Source of the DNA: Dehalococcoidia bacterium
GTDB lineage: Bacteria; Chloroflexota; Dehalococcoidia; Plut-88900
NCBI GenBank assembly: GCA_965197585.1
Contig: OZ240215.1
Coordinates: 32,001-96,000 of the forward strand
Length of the DNA: 64,000 nt
Reading direction: 5' to 3'
Shown here: one piece after another, positions 5,553-62,793 of the stretch
Numbering within the stretch: the first letter of the stretch is position 1
How the letters are laid out: each line of letters starts with the position of its first letter
The notes under the pieces: model-generated
What the model was told of the DNA's origin: nothing
The model's input: the letters and a program-made list of their open reading frames with translations, nothing else
Database searches by the model: none
Translations under genes and position numbers: made by a program

Positions 5553-7091
5553 GTGTTATCGAAGAAAGCTTGGTTGGTATTAGGGCTCTTGGCTTTAGGC
5601 ATCGTACTAGCTGCATGTGCCTCTGACCTGGAAGCCCCTCCCCCCACCCAGGACGTTGATGCTGCGGTGCGTACCGCCATAGCGGAAGCGCTTCCGACCC
5701 CCACCCCAACTCCAGTCCCAGATATCAGCGCCACCGTACAGGCGGAAGGTGAGGCGACTATAGCCGCCCAACCCACCCCGACTCCCATACCCGCGCCAAC
5801 TCCCATACCCGCGCCAACTCCCGCTCCCACTCCTACACCACTCCCCACTCCAACACCTACCCCCACTCCCACCCCACTGGCCACTCCAACACCTGCTCCC
5901 ACCCCTACTCCCACCGCGACACCCACTCCAACCCCGACTCCGTTTCCCACTCCGACTCCCATCCCCACCCCTGAACCCTCCACACCGCGCCCCCGTTCCC
6001 AGTGGACTCCCGATAACCCTGCCACCAGAGAAGAGATAGAGATCGAGCTGCAGAAATACCGGGGCGAAAGCCTTGTGTTCAGCTCCTGGGGCGGTGCATA
6101 TCAGCTAGCTCAGCGACAGGCTTACGCAATTCCATTCGAGGACCAATTTGGAATACAGATTGTCGACGTTTCTTCACCAACTCTCGGTAAGGTCAGGTCC
6201 ATACAGGAGTCCGGGAATGTCACATGGCACATTATCGATACAAGGGCTGGCTCTCTCCGCGACCTCGGCAGGAGCGGTCATCTCGAAAGCCTGAACTTCG
6301 GCATTATTGATAATCGAGACTTCCTGGACGTATTGAAGTCACCATACATAGGGGGTGGTGGGGTCACCTGGTCCGAGGTCTGGGCCTACAACACCGACCT
6401 GTTTCCAGAAGCTCGGAGACCACGCTCGATGGCCGACATATACAACACAGCTAAGTTCCCGGGAAGCCGGGGTTGGGCCCATTACCCTGATGCTGAGATG
6501 ATATTCGTACTCCTGTCGGAGAATCCCAGCCTCTTGAACACGGAGGAAGGACGGGCGAGTCTGTCTGCCTTAACTCCTGCTCAGGCGGATCGCGCATTCG
6601 AACTATTTGATGAGTATCGGGACCAGGTATCCATGATTTGGCAAAACAACACAGACTGTCCTTGGCGTCTCTCTAGGGGAGATTTGGCCTTGTGCAGTGG
6701 GTTCAATGACAGCATCTACGATGACGCCATTGAAGGGAACCCTATCCGGATTTGCTGGGAGTGTGGTCACGTCGTAAACACTGACGGTTGGAGCATCATA
6801 AGGGGTCTCAGGCGCCAGGACCCCCAAACCTTCGAGCTTGCCCAGCTCTATATGGCCTGGACAGGCCTACCCGAGAACAACGCCCGAGTGGCTCAATTCA
6901 TCGCCTACGGCCCCGTGAACCTGAGGTCACTGCCGCATCTGAATGGACCTGAATACAACGCAGTGCGCAATGACCTGCCTACCTCGCCTTCCAACCTGCC
7001 TTATGCCATCTTCAAGGATGAGGTCCACGTAGGGCGGTATACCGATACATGGCGTGAGCGCTGGATTTCATTCCAGCAGTCTATTCAGTAG
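5553..7091 (+). CDS. ABC-type polyamine-family substrate-binding lipoprotein with a long Pro/Thr linker
   Basis: Lipobox LAAC, long PTPT region, then [18 protein letters not shown] and YGPVN motifs of PotD/PotF-like SBPs; no permease genes nearby. Confidence 0.8.
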
Positions 7092-56382: not shown

Positions 56383-58074
56383 CTATTCCAGCGAAACAAT
56401 GAACTGGTAGTGGGGTTGTCCCCCATACATCATGTCCACTTCCAGGAAAGATGCGGCCTCTTCGAAGGCCATTACTAGCCGGGCCTGCTGGTCTTCCGTA
56501 ACGCCTTCACCGCAGTATACGGTGGCCAGGGAGAGGTCCATCGACTCTAACCTCGTCGCAAGCATGCGGACCACGTCTTCCGGCTCGGGGCACGCTACAG
56601 TCAGTTCCCCGTCAAGAATGCCGATTGCGTCTCCCTTGCGGACGGGGATGCCGTCGACGGAGGTGGACCTTACGGCACGGGAAATCTCCAGCGAGTATAC
56701 ACCGTCCAGCGCCTGCTGCATCGACTCCACGTTGTCATCCAAAGGCTCGGTGACGTTAAACGCGAGGACCCCCGCGACCCCCTGAGGGACGTTGGTTGTG
56801 GGTACTACCTCAACTTGCTTGGAAGACACCTCTGCGGCTTTGCGTGCGGTCAGCACTACATTCTTGTTGTTAGGCAGCACTATGACTGACTCCGCATGTA
56901 GAGACTCGACTGCCTCAAGTATCTGCCCGACACTCGGGTTCATCGATTGCCCACCCGGCACAAAGGCCCCAACGCCCAGGCTGGAAAATACTTCCTCAAT
57001 CCCGGGCCCAGGTACTACGGCAACAATTCCAATGTCCGGTGCTATCTCCTTTGAAGGGGCCCGAAGCCAATCGGCGTGCTGCTCGTCCATGTCCTGAACG
57101 CTTACCTGGGACACCTCCCCGAAGGCCATGCACAGCTCTACCACCTCATCTGGGGCGAAGCTGTGTGTGTGGACGCGGACCAGTTCTCGTTCTCCCACCA
57201 CCACGGTCGACTGGCCTACCCTGCCGACCGCCGCCCTGATTTGCGCCGAGTCCAGCCCCTGACCCCGAATAATGAACTGTGTGCAGTTGCCGTAGACCTG
57301 CTCCGTGGGTGCACTGCTCGCCACTACAGACACCCTGGCTATTGCATCCCCATTCAGGGCGGCGGGCGCTTCCCCCAGGGGTTGGTTGGTGAGGCCTTTC
57401 AATGCTCCTTCCAGGATAAGGAACACTCCCTGGCCGCCGGCATCGACGACACCGGCCTCCTTGAGTACGGGAAGTAGGTCGGGGGTGCGCAGAACGGAAG
57501 CCTCGGCCTCCCGGACTGCGTCGCCGAGCACGTCTTCGAGATTGCTGCCCGCGTTGGCAGCGGTCTCCGCTGCCCGCGCCGTATCCTTGATAACCGTCAA
57601 CATAGTCCCCTCGACCGGGCTCTCGACGCCCTTGTACGCGGACTCGGTTGCCAACGCAAGGCTGCGGGCAAGAGTCTGCCCGTCCAGCTCGCCGGCCCCG
57701 TCGATCCCATCGGCGAAGCCTCGGAGAATCTGGGACAATATAACCCCGCTGTTGCCCCGGGCCTCCATAAGGGCGCCCCAGGCGAGGGCGCGGGCCTGGG
57801 GGCCGAGGGTGGGGTCGGGGCACTCCTCGGCGGCCTTGTAGGCTGCCCGAAGGGTAAAGAGCATGTTAGTGCCTGTGTCGCCGTCGGGGACTGGAAAGAC
57901 GTTCAGAGAGTCGACGTAAGGTGCGTTAGCCGCAAGCCAGCGCGTTGCGGCATCAAACATCCTGAGGAGAGGGGATGCGTCGTCCACGCCTGAGTCTCGG
58001 CGGGCGCTTTTGGTCTTATTGGAGGAGGTCATCTGCGCTTGGGCAAGGGCTTTCAGATTGAAAATCTGGGACAT
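56383..58074 (-). CDS. DAK2 domain protein (fatty acid kinase FakA); true start may be 58032
   Basis: LNVFPVPDGDTGTNM, ARGNSGVILSQ, PVEGTMLTV, VVDAGG, GGQSMNPS, GGQPHY. Confidence 0.93.
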   Translation of the reverse strand: MSQIFNLKALAQAQMTSSNKTKSARRDSGVDDASPLLRMFDAATRWLAANAPYVDSLNVFPVPDGDTGTNMLFTLRAAYKAAEECPDPTLGPQARALAWGALMEARGNSGVILSQILRGFADGIDGAGELDGQTLARSLALATESAYKGVESPVEGTMLTVIKDTARAAETAANAGSNLEDVLGDAVREAEASVLRTPDLLPVLKEAGVVDAGGQGVFLILEGALKGLTNQPLGEAPAALNGDAIARVSVVASSAPTEQVYGNCTQFIIRGQGLDSAQIRAAVGRVGQSTVVVGERELVRVHTHSFAPDEVVELCMAFGEVSQVSVQDMDEQHADWLRAPSKEIAPDIGIVAVVPGPGIEEVFSSLGVGAFVPGGQSMNPSVGQILEAVESLHAESVIVLPNNKNVVLTARKAAEVSSKQVEVVPTTNVPQGVAGVLAFNVTEPLDDNVESMQQALDGVYSLEISRAVRSTSVDGIPVRKGDAIGILDGELTVACPEPEDVVRMLATRLESMDLSLATVYCGEGVTEDQQARLVMAFEEAASFLEVDMMYGGQPHYQFIVSLE

Positions 58075-58120
58075 TTATGCTAACGTGATGGGTACTGATT
58101 CTACACTAAAGGCGATTAAA

Positions 58121-58306
58121 TTGGCGAAGTGCGAAATATGTAACAAGATTCCCCGCTTCGGCAGGAACGTAAGCCACTCCAAAAGGCACACGCCCCGGAT
58201 GTACAGGCCGAACGTTCACCCCGTGCGGCTGATGATAAATGGCAAGCGGCAGCGGATGAAGGTCTGCACCCGTTGCCTCAGGACCCAGTACAAGCAAGCA
58301 TCTTGA
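58121..58306 (+). CDS. rpmB: 50S ribosomal protein L28 (Zn-binding CxxC form)
   Basis: TTG start; KCEICNK..RFGRNVSHSKRHT.R...PN...VCTRCLR. Confidence 0.96.
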   Translation: MAKCEICNKIPRFGRNVSHSKRHTPRMYRPNVHPVRLMINGKRQRMKVCTRCLRTQYKQAS

Positions 58307-59061
58307 CTTTGTCTGCCCTCCTCCGCCGACGCACGGTTGCGCCTGCTGTGGCGTTGTTCTTCTGCGCGCTTGTCGTTGGAGCTGCTTGGGCCTGCGGCGG
58401 ATCAACCGATTCTCCCGACCCCACTGCCACCCAGGCCCCGTCTGCCACCACCGCGCCGGATGCCGACCCTGACCCCACATCCGAGCCCGCTGCCACACCG
58501 ACTGCCTTATCGGTGATCACTCTTGACCCTGATGGCAGGGGATGGAATGTCCTCGGCTCGGCGGACGCGTCAGTCACCGTCCTGGACTATAGTGACTTCC
58601 AATGACCCGGCTGTAGGCGCTGGGCCCTTGGAACGGCCCAGGAGATCAAATCGACCTACGTGGACGACGGCAGGGTCAAGGTGGAATACCGCCATTACGC
58701 CGTCCTGGGTCCCGAATCGCGCCTGATGGCTCAAGGCACCGAGTGTGCGGGTGAGCAGGGTGAATTCTGGAAATATCACGACGCGATATTCCAGGAGCGG
58801 ACCAGGGAGATAGGCGTCCAGGGGCAAATAGCTCGTGCCAATACCATCGGCTTGGACATTCCCAAGTTCACCGCCTGCATGGAAAACGAGACCTATGAGC
58901 ACATTGTCGACGGGGACTTGGCTCAGGCTCGAGAGGATGGCGTAACCACCCAGCCCACCATCTTCATCCTGAGCGGCGACCAGATGACGAAGTTCGTCGG
59001 GGCACGCGCCTTCGACGTGGTTTCCGCAGTCATAGACGAATACCTGGGCTCCGCGTACTAG
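58303..59061 (+). CDS. DsbA/thioredoxin-fold lipoprotein, predicted selenoprotein (UPGC; TGA 58603-58605)
   Basis: Read-through gives LGSADASVTVLDYSDFQ-U-PGCRRW...YVDDGRVKVEYRHY...ECAGEQGEFWKYHD...GVTTQPTIFI, one uninterrupted DsbA domain; TTG start overlaps the rpmB stop (start site inferred). Confidence 0.88.
58620..58641 (+). promoter_or_regulatory. Putative bacterial SECIS element 1
   Basis: CTGGGCC-CTTGGAAC-GGCCCAG, 7-bp stem with a GG-containing loop; TGGGCC starts 15 nt after the TGA. Confidence 0.7.
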
Positions 59062-60629
59062 TGACCCGAGCGCCAATGCTGGGACACGGGTCTTCTCAAA
59101 TGTCCATTCTCCCCCGACGCCTGACATTCACCCGACTTGGCATCCTCCTATTTTGTGTAACCGTCCTTGCTATGGTTTCATGGGCCTGCTCGTCGAGCCC
59201 TGAGATAGTTGATCCTACATCTACCGGCGCGCCGGTCCCCACTAACACCCTCGTCCCTCCATCGACTTCAGCTCCCTCCGACGCTCCTCCCACCGACACC
59301 CCTCCACCCGATTCTACGCCGGGCGCACCTCCAACGACCCGGGACTGGAATGTCCTCGGGTCGCCGGACGCCTCCGTGTCCATCGCCGATTTCGGCGACT
59401 TCCTCTGACCCGGTTGCAAGCATTGGGCCCGTGGTGCGGCCCTCGAAGTGAAGAAAGCCTACATCGAGACTGGGTTGGTGAACCTGAACTACTTCCATTT
59501 CCCTCATATCAACGATGATTCTTACTTGGCGGCCCACGCCACCGAGTGTGCGGGAGAACAGGGCTCTTTCTGGCAGTACCATGACACTCTTTACGAAAAA
59601 CAGGGCGAGGGCGGCAGAGGGGTGGAAAGACTCGAAGGGTTCGCCGAAGACCTTGGCCTCGACACGGGACGCTTCTCGGCTTGCATGGAAGCCAGAACCT
59701 ACGACGGCGTTATTCAAAGAGACATAAATCTGGCCCTGCGGAACGAAGTCTCGGTCACCCCCACCATCTTCGTCCTGTCCACCGACCCCAACCAAACTGG
59801 AACAAAATTCGACGGTTCGCCTTCCTTCGAAACCATTTCCGCAGTAATTGATGAGTTGCTGATGACGCAGCAACCGGCCCCTGCCCCAACACCCACCGTA
59901 ACCCTAGTCCCGACATCCACTTCCGCCCCTGCTCCCGTTGCAAGTTCCACGCCTGCTCCGACGCCTACGGCGGCATCTTTGGCGCCATCCCCAACACCAA
60001 TAGTCAGTCCCGTCCCTACACCTGCCCCGACTCCCTCTCCCACCCCCGTCCCAACTGCAGTCCCGACACCCTCTCCAACTCCCAATCCAACCGCCACGTC
60101 TGTGCCGGAACCCGTCGGCAGAGTATGGAATGTTCTAGGTTCCCTGGATGCGCCCGTCACATTGGAGGAATTCAGCGACTTTCAATGAGGCGTTTGCAGG
60201 AATTGGGCCCTTGGACCGGCCCAGGAGATAAAGCGACAATACATAGACCAAGGTCAGGTAAAGCTGGTGCTCCGCCACCGGACCACTTTCGGTCCCGCCT
60301 CGAGAATCATGTCCTTGGGAACGGAGTGCGCCGGTGAGCAAGATAAGTTTTGGGAGTTTCATGACGCCCGAATTCGAAGCGGCTCCGGGAGCGTCCAAGG
60401 CCAGATCAGCTTGGCACAGACTCTGGGTCTGAACGTGCCCCAATTTACCGCTTGCATGGAAGAGCAGAGGTACCAGAAATTCTTGGAAGAAGACCGAGCC
60501 GCCGCTCAAGCCAACGGCATCTTCACTCAGCCCGCCTTCATCATTAGTAGTGGTGGACAGTCAATCAAGCGGATTGGATCGCTGACCGCTGGACAGCTCG
60601 GGCCGATAATCGACGAATTGCTAAACTAG
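59061..60629 (+). CDS. Tandem two-domain DsbA-like lipoprotein, predicted two-Sec selenoprotein (UPGC TGA 59406-59408; UGVC TGA 60186-60188)
   Basis: ORFs 59061.., 59448.. and 60267.. share a frame; DFGDFL-U-PGCKHW and EFSDFQ-U-GVCRNW each lead into ECAGEQ..FW..HD and a cis-Pro loop; a Pro/Thr linker separates the domains. Start may be ATG 59076 or 59100. Confidence 0.85.
59425..59442 (+). promoter_or_regulatory. Putative bacterial SECIS element 2
   Basis: GGGCC-CGTGGTGC-GGCCC at the same spacing from its TGA. Confidence 0.65.
60204..60223 (+). promoter_or_regulatory. Putative bacterial SECIS element 3
   Basis: TGGGCC-CTTGGACC-GGCCCA at the same spacing from its TGA. Confidence 0.68.
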
Positions 60630-60634
60630 GCAGT

Positions 60635-61312
60635 CTAAGCCTGCCCGAGGCTCTCCCGAATTCTGGCAATTGACCCGGCCACCGTGTCCCGATCGTTAAA
60701 CACCGCCGACCCAGCCACAAGCACCCTCGCCCCGGCCTCCACAGCCTTCGACGCCGTCTCTGCATTGATGCCACCGTCCACCTCCAACTCCGCCCCCGAC
60801 CCCGCCTCATCCAGCATCTGCCGCACCTTTGCTATCTTGCTCGTCACGCTGTGAATGTACTTCTGCCCCCCGAAACCCGGATTCACCGTCATCACCAGTA
60901 CTAGGTCAACATCCCCTATCACTGGCTCGAGCGCGGAAGCAGGAGTCCCGGGGTTGAGCGATATCCCTGCTTTCACGCCCAGGTCCTTGATCTGATAGAT
61001 CACCCTGTGCAGATGGCGGCAAGCCTCCGGGTGGACGGTGAGTATGTTTGCGCCCGCCTTGGCGAAGTCGGGGATCAACCTATCCGGCTCTTCTATCATC
61101 AGGTGAACGTCCAGGGGCAGTTCGGTCCATGGCCGAATCCCCGATACGATGATCGGCCCGATCGTGAGATTGGGCACGAAGTGGCCGTCCATGATGTCGA
61201 CGTGAATGTAGTCGGCCCCCGACTCCGACGCCTCGGCAACCTGCTCGCCTAGGCGCCCAAAGTCTGCAGATAGAATAGAAGGTGAGATTTTTATCTCGGG
61301 GGAATCAGGCAT
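60635..61312 (-). CDS. rpe: Ribulose-phosphate 3-epimerase
   Basis: ISPSILSADF, HVDIMDGHFVPN, DVHLMI, MTVNPGFGGQ, EVDGGI. Confidence 0.97.
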   Translation of the reverse strand: MPDSPEIKISPSILSADFGRLGEQVAEASESGADYIHVDIMDGHFVPNLTIGPIIVSGIRPWTELPLDVHLMIEEPDRLIPDFAKAGANILTVHPEACRHLHRVIYQIKDLGVKAGISLNPGTPASALEPVIGDVDLVLVMTVNPGFGGQKYIHSVTSKIAKVRQMLDEAGSGAELEVDGGINAETASKAVEAGARVLVAGSAVFNDRDTVAGSIARIRESLGQA

Positions 61313-61313
61313 G

Positions 61314-62663
61314 TTAAGACCTCAGTGCCTCGCGGGCCTGCAATAGCGCTTCTTTCACCCTATCGGGTGCCGTGCCACCCTGGCTGGCCCGAGCCGCTAG
61401 GGACGATTCCACGGTAATTGCGAAGGCATCCTCATCGAATAGAGAAGAAAAGCGCCGGTATTCCTCCAGGCTCAGCTCGTTGAGGGCCGTGCTCTTCTCG
61501 GCGGCATAGATGACAAGAGATTTGGTAGCTCCGTGTGCCTCCCGGAAAGGCAGCCCCTTCGCCACGAGGTAGTCCGCGAGGTCCGTGGCTAGTATTCCTG
61601 AATAAACACCGGCCTCCGCAGCCCTCCGCGTCCTCTCTCGGTTGATGGTCATGGTCTCGACCATCCCCGCAAATGCATCCAGTGTCGAGTTCAGGGTGTC
61701 CACGGTGTCGAACAGGCCCTCCTTGTCCTCTTGCATGTCCTTATTGTAGGCGAGTGGCAGGGCCTTTAGGGTAGTGAGCAGGGCCATCAGGTTCCCGTAG
61801 ACCCGACCCGTCTTTCCCCGGCCTAGCTCGGCCACGTCCGGGTTTCGCTTCTGGGGCATTATGCTGCTTCCCGTCGTGTATTCGGGGGTGAGGGAGGCGA
61901 ACCCGAACTCCTCGGAGGTCCAGAGTATCATCTCCTCGGCCAGGCGGGAGAGGTGCATCATGACGATAGCCGCCGCTGCATGGAACTCCACGAGGAAGTC
62001 CCGGTCGGAGACGGCATCCATACTGTTTCGAGCCACGCCATCGAACCCCAGTTCCCTTGCCACGAACTCCCGGTCAATCGGGTAGGTGACGCCCGCCAGC
62101 GCCCCCGCCCCTAGGGGTAATACGTTCACGCGTCGGCGGCAGTCCTTGAATCGTGCAATGTCCCGCTGCGCCATCTCAAAGTAGGCGAGCAGGTGATGTG
62201 CGACAAGAACGGGCTGGGCGCGTTGCAGGTGCGTGTAGCCGGGCATGATCGCGTCGGCGTTGGCCTCGGCTTGCGAGAGAAGAGCGTTCTGAAACGAGCG
62301 AATCCCCGCTATGGCGTCGTCGATGGCTTCCCTCAGGAACAGACGTACATCCAGGGCTACTTGGTCGTTACGGGAACGGGCGGTGTGAAGCCTGCCTGCC
62401 GGTTCCCCGATGAGCTCGGCCAGCCGGGTCTCGACGTTCATGTGAATGTCTTCCAGCTCTTCCCGAAAGGGGAAGAGCCCTGACTCTATCTCGACCTGTA
62501 TCGCATCGAGGCCCTCACAAATAGCCTCGACTTCCGACTCAGGCACAATCCCCTGCCGCCCGAGCATCCGCGCATGCGCCTTTGACCCGGCGATATCGTG
62601 CTTATAAAGCCTCTGATCGAAGGCTATGGATGTGGTGTAGGGGTGGGGGATGGGAGAGGACAT
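61314..62663 (-). CDS. argH: Argininosuccinate lyase
   Basis: EDIHMNVE, HTARSRNDQ, MPGYTHLQRAQP, TGSSIMPQKRNPD. Confidence 0.97.
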   Translation of the reverse strand: MSSPIPHPYTTSIAFDQRLYKHDIAGSKAHARMLGRQGIVPESEVEAICEGLDAIQVEIESGLFPFREELEDIHMNVETRLAELIGEPAGRLHTARSRNDQVALDVRLFLREAIDDAIAGIRSFQNALLSQAEANADAIMPGYTHLQRAQPVLVAHHLLAYFEMAQRDIARFKDCRRRVNVLPLGAGALAGVTYPIDREFVARELGFDGVARNSMDAVSDRDFLVEFHAAAAIVMMHLSRLAEEMILWTSEEFGFASLTPEYTTGSSIMPQKRNPDVAELGRGKTGRVYGNLMALLTTLKALPLAYNKDMQEDKEGLFDTVDTLNSTLDAFAGMVETMTINRERTRRAAEAGVYSGILATDLADYLVAKGLPFREAHGATKSLVIYAAEKSTALNELSLEEYRRFSSLFDEDAFAITVESSLAARASQGGTAPDRVKEALLQAREALRS

Positions 62664-62793
62664 GCCTATCTGCAAAGGTTTGGAAGGTATGTCATTTTCG
62701 TTGTCATCCTACAAATTTTGGGTAGTTTATCCAGACTTTAGGGACTTATATATCTGTGAGCACAAGAAAAGTCTCTAGAGCACGAAAGAATGA

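Follow-up and report, generated by a model that had tools for sequence, protein, structure and literature searches.

Do three in-frame TGA codons that interrupt a pair of DsbA-like reading frames end these genes, or do they encode selenocysteine (Sec, U)? The question is raised by a locus at 58273-60629 of a 64,000-nucleotide stretch of DNA from a Dehalococcoidia bacterium (assembly GCA_965197585.1, contig OZ240215.1, positions 32,001 to 96,000 of the forward strand), which is called the window in the following. The locus very likely encodes two exported, probably lipid-anchored thiol:disulphide oxidoreductases of the DsbA/BdbD type, here named gene A and gene B, in which Sec takes the place of the first cysteine of the CxxC motif. 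Sec would replace this nucleophilic cysteine in the one domain of gene A and in both domains of gene B. Each UGA would be recoded by SelB and Sec-tRNA(Sec) under the control of a short hairpin, rich in G+C, that begins some 18 nucleotides (nt) downstream, and in gene B two independent selenocysteine insertion sequence (SECIS) elements in one frame would lead to two recoding events per translation. After export and processing by Lgt and LspA, the domains would reside on long Pro/Thr tethers outside the membrane and exchange disulphides with secreted proteins via a mixed selenenylsulphide intermediate. Two parts of this explanation are inferred, namely the lipid anchor and the direction in which the enzymes work.

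Three in-frame TGA codons at DsbA active sites

The preliminary description of this DNA had placed TGA codons at 58603, 59406 and 60186, each where the first Cys of a DsbA CxxC belongs, and this was confirmed. All three are in frame on the plus strand at the first Cys position of a DsbA/Thioredoxin_4 CxxC, in the contexts SDFQ-U-PGC, GDFL-U-PGC and SDFQ-U-GVC, respectively, and the frame is open beyond every TGA. With translation table 11 the region is read as five open reading frame (ORF) fragments. When TGA is read as U, these join into two continuous frames, P0001 (58273-59061) and P0002 (59061-60629), in line with the proteins of 252 and 522 amino acids that had been proposed. Gene A could start at TTG 58273 (262 residues) or TTG 58303 (252 residues), gene B at GTG 59061 (522 residues) or ATG 59100 (509 residues). 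A comparison across the genus, with eight further species, refined the gene limits. TTG 58303 and ATG 59100 are the most likely starts, the latter because the homologous ATG in G001 is the first codon after a stop, and gene B is therefore likelier to have 509 residues.

Standard annotation hides the locus, which is split into five fragments and has left only pieces in the public protein collections. For gene A these are P0068 (133 amino acids) and P0079 (144 amino acids), both 89% identical, and for gene B no full-length record was found in a collection of 5.8 billion protein clusters (best match 38% identity over 48% of the query). Such a picture is also given by TGAs that are real stops, the locus then consisting of decayed pseudogenes or of five small ORFs, but this explanation is extremely unlikely. 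The locus was present in all 8 other species of the genus, with orthologues down to 62% identity, and TGA was found at 27/27 positions across the nine species, one in gene A and two in gene B in 9/9 genomes. The ratio of non-synonymous to synonymous substitution rates (dN/dS) was computed for 10/36 species pairs, with dS often above 1 and up to saturation. On the 3' side of the TGA it was 0.044-0.167 in gene A, 0.048-0.128 in the first domain of gene B (B1, including one pair with saturated dS) and 0.039-0.282 in the second domain (B2). The linker between the two domains evolved faster, with values of 0.18-0.45. Pseudogenes or independent nonsense mutations, the latter judged implausible at the outset, cannot yield this pattern of 27/27 TGAs and purifying selection, in which dN/dS after the TGAs is 0.04-0.28 and not near 1. 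With real stops, moreover, the downstream fragments would have no signal peptide and the thioredoxin fold would be split, and the complete Sec machinery and the constraint on the hairpins described below would have no place.

The pairing of Cys with TGA in an alignment of homologues, which had been suggested as a check, was also observed. Among 174 active sites gathered from 142 loci, the active-site column holds Sec (TGA) in 93 and Cys (TGC/TGT) in 81. An orthologue of gene A in G184 (L162:1498-2265, minus strand) is 74% identical and has TGC at the Sec column.

The three codons were also followed in sample contigs. Those of two independent runs (X2, X6) span the whole of 58200-60700 (30/30 bins), and the differences listed for them include none at the three TGAs. 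X2 records 5 and 11 span the first and the third TGA with 2 and 1 other letters, respectively. The first TGA is also crossed by contigs of two RNA libraries (X18 record 2, 58552-58756; X20 record 14, 58567-58700).

Fold, active site and export of the two proteins

The Pfam family Thioredoxin_4 (PF13462) matched gene A with 89.8 bits (3e-25) and gene B with 161.4 bits (2.8e-47) in two stretches, at a threshold of 23.2, and DSBA (PF01323) was above its cut-off in both proteins. The closest solved structures by sequence were Bacillus subtilis BdbD (1.1e-13) and Corynebacterium diphtheriae DsbA (4.8e-13), and U was aligned with the first Cys of CPSC in the solved relatives. An AlphaFold2 model of the gene A domain, computed with 30 aligned domains, reached a predicted local distance difference test score of 95.2 and a predicted template modelling (TM) score of 0.90. 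Its top matches in Foldseek were TsdA (7unn), C. diphtheriae DsbA (4pwp), BdbD (3eu3) and Wolbachia alpha-DsbA1 (3f4r), with TM scores of 0.85-0.87; ScsC and Mycobacterium tuberculosis DsbG were among the other structural neighbours.

In the 30-domain alignment U/C24, C27, C71, C115, G8, A12, G46, A72, Q75, W79, A102 and F112 are invariant. The second Cys pair, C71/C115, sits in the helical insert and probably forms a structural disulphide. Pro141 of the cis-Pro loop is nearly invariant; in gene A of one species (G003, L052) a Ser replaces the cis-Pro (TTQSTIF). The predicted domains thus have the characteristics of a DsbA, namely an active site (as UxxC) at the N-terminus of helix 1, the cis-Pro loop and a helical insertion.

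At the N-terminus of both proteins, a basic n-region precedes a hydrophobic core, and an invariant Cys follows behind a small residue. The residues before this Cys, judged by eye, are AWA-C and SWA-C here and AIA-C and TVA-C in relatives. The Cys is separated from the catalytic domain by 50-60 residues, among which Pro, Thr, Ala and Asp are abundant. Since an invariant Cys follows the hydrophobic core and the genome encodes lgt (128.8 bits) and lspA (105.8 bits), we infer that both proteins are lipoproteins. Of the membrane-anchored protein with two Sec domains on a Pro/Thr tether that had been proposed, the domains, the putative signal peptides and the tethers were found, and lipidation is the part that is predicted by eye.

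Selenocysteine machinery of the genome

The components that would be needed for the insertion of Sec were searched for in the genome of the window (G000), a single contig of 3.43 Mb with an estimated completeness of 91.9%, and all four that had been named for this check were found. A tRNA-Sec was detected with Rfam (65.8 bits, cut-off 47) and called by ARAGORN as SeC(tca). The profile matches for selA (542.7 bits), selB (369.6 bits) and selD (385.4 bits) were all above the curated cut-offs, and selD carries one in-frame TGA of its own.

A genome scan for TGAs in a coding context listed 76 sites, mostly noise, and 10 candidates were compared with NCBIfam. Nine of these 10 (L203-L211, outside the window) match families expected of selenoproteins. 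They include a UGSC family candidate with three sites (141.7 bits, cut-off 125) and GrdA, the selenoprotein A of glycine/sarcosine/betaine reductase (200.9 bits, cut-off 130), in addition to SelW/T/H, peroxiredoxin, a peroxiredoxin-like UxxC protein, ArsC/Spx-like, rhodanese, thioredoxin-NHL and FrnE-type DsbA proteins. The curated cut-offs were passed only by UGSC, GrdA and the TIGR02174 SelW/T/H model. The hemL-like candidate L212 was rejected, its TGA lying upstream of the real start. The strong Thioredoxin_4 matches of the genome are three in number and all are Sec domains of the locus; a fourth, weak match is the FrnE-like Sec protein, and a fifth scored below the cut-off.

It is very unlikely that the UGAs are read through in another way, be it by a reassigned code (TGA for Trp or Gly), by a near-cognate tRNA or by Cys insertion. 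An analysis of sequences cannot tell Sec from another residue in the protein, which leaves room for such a reading. A reassigned code is, however, not the explanation because TGA ends ordinary genes of the genome such as the neighbouring rpmB (58304-58306). The in-frame TGAs are confined to redox-motif positions aligned with Cys, and tRNA-Sec, selA, selB and selD are all present, both of which argue against any of these forms of read-through.

SECIS-like hairpins downstream of the TGAs

A common hairpin lies 3' of each TGA. It has a GGGCC/GGCCC core, which is extended to 7 base pairs (bp) in gene A and B2, and an 8-nt loop with UGG, and in all three copies it lies within +18 to +39 from the U of UGA. 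In bacterial SECIS prediction of the bSECISearch type, a stem-loop shortly 3' of the UGA with a G in the apical loop is expected, and the hairpins of the locus have this form, that of B1 being the weakest. An Rfam scan of 57000-62000 found no family (best E about 4), which is uninformative as Rfam is without a matching bacterial SECIS model.

Because the folding of the single sequences was unremarkable (z = -0.88 for gene A, +0.27 for B1 and -1.25 for B2), the hairpins were examined for evolutionary constraint. Among codons with an amino acid that is invariant across the nine species, synonymous variation was observed in 5/17 hairpin codons compared with 179/226 elsewhere in the domains (Fisher p = 3.6e-5). 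Each of the five varying hairpin codons falls within the loop, affects the outermost pair or retains a G-U pair. Distant Sec homologues encode other peptides and have other hairpin sequences at the same distance from the UGA, for example GCGGCUC-AGGCU-GAGCCGC and UCGCCCU-CGGGCC-AGGGCGA. Of the active sites collected, 61/93 Sec sites (46/70 outside the genus) but 3/81 Cys sites have a stem of 6 bp or more whose loop starts at +21 to +34 and contains GG or GU. The mean folding z was -1.24 at Sec sites and, in the same class, +0.22 at Cys sites (Mann-Whitney p = 1.2e-5, 70 vs 21). The results show that the hairpins are under constraint at the level of the RNA.

Several points weigh against the reading of both genes as selenoprotein genes. 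The proteins and the incorporation of Sec are predictions. The stem and loop criterion applied to the collected active sites was set after the Sec hairpins had been viewed, and these sites are related to each other. The B1 hairpin has 5 G-C pairs and folds no better than shuffled sequences, and covariation of the stem within the genus is nearly nil, the stem being invariant. The coverage by samples comes from assembled contigs rather than raw reads. The RNA libraries X18 and X20, which may contain DNA, covered gene A in part and gene B only slightly; the low coverage of gene B is no evidence against its expression. As to the anchoring, the lipobox was judged by eye, and A-x-A before the Cys also fits cleavage by signal peptidase I. 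Taken together with the conservation of the TGAs, the machinery and the hairpins, we nevertheless hold the selenoprotein reading of both genes with high confidence.

Redox partners and the direction of catalysis

VKOR, an analogue of DsbB, directly adjoins a DsbA homologue in many genomes of the class, for example in G035 (5627-6130 and 6222-6596) and in G013 (1574-2008 and 2155-2523). Four Sec-type DsbA genes also adjoin VKOR (in G018, G038, G045 and G334). Because these relatives, including the four Sec forms, are direct neighbours of a DsbB analogue, an oxidase role is favoured. We lean slightly towards a function of the two proteins as oxidase or isomerase in oxidative protein folding, with a re-oxidation that would be partner-free or occur by a route other than VKOR and DsbB, neither of which was found in the genome of the window. 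Beside these findings, in G018 the VKOR homologue directly 3' of the Sec-DsbA gene (L061:2559-3161, plus strand) carries a TGA, in frame, where the first Cys of its own CxxC belongs (..LQAI-U-PWCVAE..). This homologue is a candidate for a VKOR with Sec, and no entry for VKOR was seen in the main-text Table 1 of PMC13188914.

Two further features may lean the same way. The active-site motif of the relatives G010 and G011 is UPHC, which corresponds to the CPHC of E. coli DsbA, and the genome of the window encodes COX1, a heme-copper oxidase.

Against a classical oxidase role stands that VKOR and DsbB were not found by a search of the genome of the window, nor in any of the 11 other genomes of the family (0/11). 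They were likewise found in 0/25 genomes of another family, f22. An ORF resembling CcdA/DsbD_TM (33.8 bits) that adjoins lgt (L070:1426-2241, plus strand, which is G000:C1:891159-891974) also counts against a classical oxidase role. In this ORF the motif TPCVGP comes before SPCILP. The usual order of the CcdA motifs is the reverse, and the gene may be permuted or mis-delimited. An association of Sec-type DsbA with the lack of VKOR/DsbB (both missing in 39/44 Sec-type genomes vs 29/112 others, with the list of Sec-type genomes compiled among the matches listed) was rejected as a test because the 39 genomes amount to about five lineages, and five other lineages combine Sec-type DsbA with VKOR.

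The same selenoproteins may instead have a reductive role, as extracytoplasmic reductases or isomerases (DsbG-, DsbC- or ScsC-like) that are fed by a CcdA-like transporter and cytoplasmic thioredoxin. They would then repair sulphenylated or mispaired cysteines, or serve to reduce extracellular peroxides or metal(loid)s. This reading differs in the direction of catalysis only and not in the identity of the genes, and we consider it possible but doubtful. The missing VKOR/DsbB and the CcdA/DsbD_TM homologue beside lgt would suit it, as would a weak NCBIfam similarity to DsbG (E = 0.006 and 0.0002) and the presence of ScsC and M. tuberculosis DsbG among the structural neighbours. Sec lowers the redox potential of thioredoxin-fold proteins, which also counts for a reductive role. 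So does the name 'DsbG-like', under which PMC13188914 (Table 1) enters the related NCBIfam family NF041057. However, the best matches in sequence and structure are the oxidases BdbD, C. diphtheriae DsbA and TsdA, the relatives, including Sec forms, are paired with VKOR and not with DsbD-type genes, and no dimerisation domain of the DsbC/DsbG type lies within the domain limits.

For the oxidase or isomerase role we also put forward, as a rather unlikely extension, that the multiplied Sec-DsbA domains of this lineage, and independently those of family f22, form an oxidative-folding system that works without DsbB or VKOR. Their selenenylsulphide might be regenerated by O2 or a small oxidant, or by a relay between the domains. 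Small-molecule diselenide catalysts are regenerated directly by O2 or a small oxidant. In the relay version, the fused two-Sec protein would correspond, in bacteria, to the pair of catalytic domains in protein disulphide isomerase. The lineages with several Sec-DsbA copies and no VKOR/DsbB raise the concrete question of whether a Sec-DsbA can turn over without a quinone-linked partner, which bears on the old question of what a thiol oxidoreductase gains from selenium.

Distribution and descent

A homologue at E <=1e-10 was found in 156/401 genomes of the class, and copies of the TGA type are frequent. The conserved TGA and the two-domain form, which had been proposed as the subject of a search across the class, were found in 9/9 genomes of the genus, and among the 142 loci scanned the fused Sec-Sec frame occurs in only these 9 loci. 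A single fused Cys-Cys form (L118) was seen among the same loci. For 80 loci, retrieved with the active site back-translated to Cys codons, the taxonomic breadth applies to the Cys forms only; a few neighbouring Sec forms were seen when these loci were scanned. In members of family f22, 2-5 separate Sec genes stand in arrays, and every gene has a signal peptide of its own.

A tree of 58 domains was computed with a quick method, with support from the Shimodaira-Hasegawa-like approximate likelihood ratio test and a midpoint root, by which the direction of Sec-to-Cys changes is only suggested. The domains A, B1 and B2 and a Cys paralogue form one clade, with the single Sec genes of the sister genera G010 and G011 adjacent (support 93-97). 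Of the nine species, five were seen to have the Cys paralogue, which was not seen in the genome of the window. From this position of the clade in the quick tree, the tandem protein arose within its own lineage, where a single Sec gene was duplicated and copies were fused. The arrays of f22 fall in a clade of their own (support 100) and expanded separately. The TGC orthologue of G184 nests beside gene A of G001; its genome is assigned to another family, has selA, and keeps the same hairpin at the gene. The gene may have been transferred recently and changed from Sec to Cys, or wrong binning may account for its place.

Gene context and features of the locus

The probable start codon of gene A (TTG) and the stop codon of rpmB (TGA) overlap as TTGA at 58303-58306, and no promoter-like site was found between the two genes. 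This overlap suggests that gene A is co-transcribed and translationally coupled with rpmB, which encodes ribosomal protein L28. Further upstream, a DAK2/YloV-like protein of 563 amino acids is encoded on the minus strand (56383-58074), and rpe-like and argH-like ORFs follow downstream in convergent orientation (60635-62675, minus strand), all judged by eye from their translations. Among the flanking ORFs, which are housekeeping genes, no gene of a redox partner adjoins the locus. The linker of gene B differs in length among the species, the distance from Sec to Sec being 199-263 amino acids. In one contig of run X2, 176 nt of this linker (window 59881-60058) are skipped, which is not a multiple of three. 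The features are collected in Table 1.

Table 1. Predicted features of the Sec-DsbA locus, with coordinates in the window
Feature	Coordinates	Strand	Remarks
Gene A, predicted single-domain Sec-DsbA-like lipoprotein, 252 amino acids + stop	58303..59061	+	kept in 9/9 genomes of the genus
Putative signal peptide of gene A: RRR n-region, hydrophobic core, A-W-A-C; candidate lipidation Cys codon 58393-58395 invariant	58303..58395	+	judged by eye
Catalytic DsbA/Thioredoxin_4 domain of gene A (P0058): UxxC, second invariant Cys pair, cis-Pro loop TTQPT	58534..59058	+	
UGA-1, putative Sec codon of gene A (UPGC)	58603..58605	+	
SECIS-like hairpin 1: CUGGGCC / loop CUUGGAAC / GGCCCAG; +18 to +39 from U of UGA	58620..58641	+	
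Gene B, predicted tandem two-domain Sec-DsbA-like lipoprotein, 509 amino acids from ATG 59100	59100..60629	+	
Putative signal peptide of gene B, S-W-A-C; candidate lipidation Cys codon 59187-59189	59100..59189	+	
First catalytic domain of gene B (B1)	59337..59861	+	
UGA-2, putative Sec codon of B1 (UPGC, invariant in nine species)	59406..59408	+	
SECIS-like hairpin 2: GGGCC / loop CGUGGUGC / GGCCC	59425..59442	+	
Pro/Thr/Ala-rich linker joining B1 and B2	59862..60116	+	
Second catalytic domain of gene B (B2)	60117..60626	+	
UGA-3, putative Sec codon of B2 (UGVC; other species UGIC, UPTC or UPSC)	60186..60188	+	
SECIS-like hairpin 3: UUGGGCC / loop CUUGGACC / GGCCCAG	60203..60224	+	

Comparison with known selenoproteins and DsbA systems

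If the selenoprotein reading is true, all three strong Thioredoxin_4 matches of an aerobic bacterium, and with them the weaker FrnE-like fourth, would be selenoproteins. Gene B would combine two SECIS-directed recodings in one polypeptide, which is rare in bacteria and uncatalogued for this family. The hairpins of the locus could aid the design of cassettes for selenoprotein expression.

The general kind, a UxxC DsbA-like selenoprotein, is already known. "DsbA-like" UxxC selenoproteins of the COG2761/PF01323 type (nine sequences) are described from the Sargasso Sea (PMC1088965), and "DsbG-like" and "DsbA-like" families are tabulated (PMC1794560); single-domain forms of both sorts have thus been published since 2005-2006. 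The preliminary description had also named UxxC DsbA-like selenoproteins as known in bacteria. A 2026 review covers 119 selenoprotein families, and its main-text Table 1 has NF041057 as a "DsbG-like protein" with UxxC and 1 Sec and forms 1 and 2 of the DsbA-like proteins with 1 Sec each, and no DsbA-type entry with two Sec (PMC13188914). Literature searches for double or DsbG-like lipoprotein selenoproteins and for Chloroflexi and sponge selenoproteomes, within the main texts, found no tandem form. The fused two-Sec DsbA protein therefore appears to be undescribed, and in this respect the initial impression of an unrecognised architecture holds. To speak of an undescribed redox system was an overstatement, as single-domain UxxC proteins, NF041057 and tandem Cys DsbA proteins are known. 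What appears to be new is the fused two-Sec lipoprotein, as predicted here, together with the lack of any known re-oxidant in lineages with multiplied Sec-DsbA genes.

The nearest described family is NF041057 (Rcas_1661 family thioredoxin-like (seleno)lipoprotein), which matches both proteins. Gene A scored 146.6 bits, below the 190-bit equivalog cut-off, and gene B scored 258.8 bits, above the cut-off only as the sum of two stretches. By the curated cut-off the locus is related to this family but is not a member of it. Its members are homologous thioredoxin-fold lipoproteins with Sec first in UxxC, and the hidden Markov model aligned with gene A over 32-246 of its 247 positions, but they have one domain and one Sec where gene B has two of each. 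The Sargasso Sea family likewise shares the DsbA-superfamily fold, the UxxC and the PF01323 match with the locus; it is of the FrnE/COG2761 type (PMC1088965), whereas the locus is of the Thioredoxin_4/BdbD type with signal peptide and tether. A member of the FrnE/COG2761 type is found elsewhere in the same genome (L203, SDYI-U-PWC).

With BdbD (3eu3), C. diphtheriae DsbA (4pwp), TsdA (7unn) and alpha-DsbA1 (3f4r), the proteins of the locus share the thioredoxin fold, the helical insert and the cis-Pro loop, but all four are single-domain proteins with Cys in the active site. The partner of BdbD is BdbC, which is of the DsbB type, whereas no partner of the DsbB/VKOR type was found in the genome of the window.

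Tandem DsbA architecture with Cys is common. Like gene B, the multi-domain Cys proteins have several Thioredoxin_4 domains per polypeptide (2-6), some with a lipoprotein signal and Pro-rich linkers; examples are a 'DsbA family protein' of 648 amino acids from Myxococcota (P0008), the Anaerolineae lipoproteins P0004, P0013 and P0015, and locus L118. They differ in that all their active sites are CxxC, and they are only 25-32% identical to gene B. One of them, the tandem Cys-Cys DsbA lipoprotein P0015 (504 amino acids), stops at ...DFSDFQ, directly before a would-be third active site, and its gene call may have been cut at the Sec codon of a third domain. Finally, the arrays of G032, G283 and G175 resemble the locus in having 2-5 neighbouring UxxC lipoprotein genes, each with a hairpin, in genomes without VKOR/DsbB. 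In contrast to gene B, the genes of these arrays are separate, have their own signal peptides and go back to an independent expansion.

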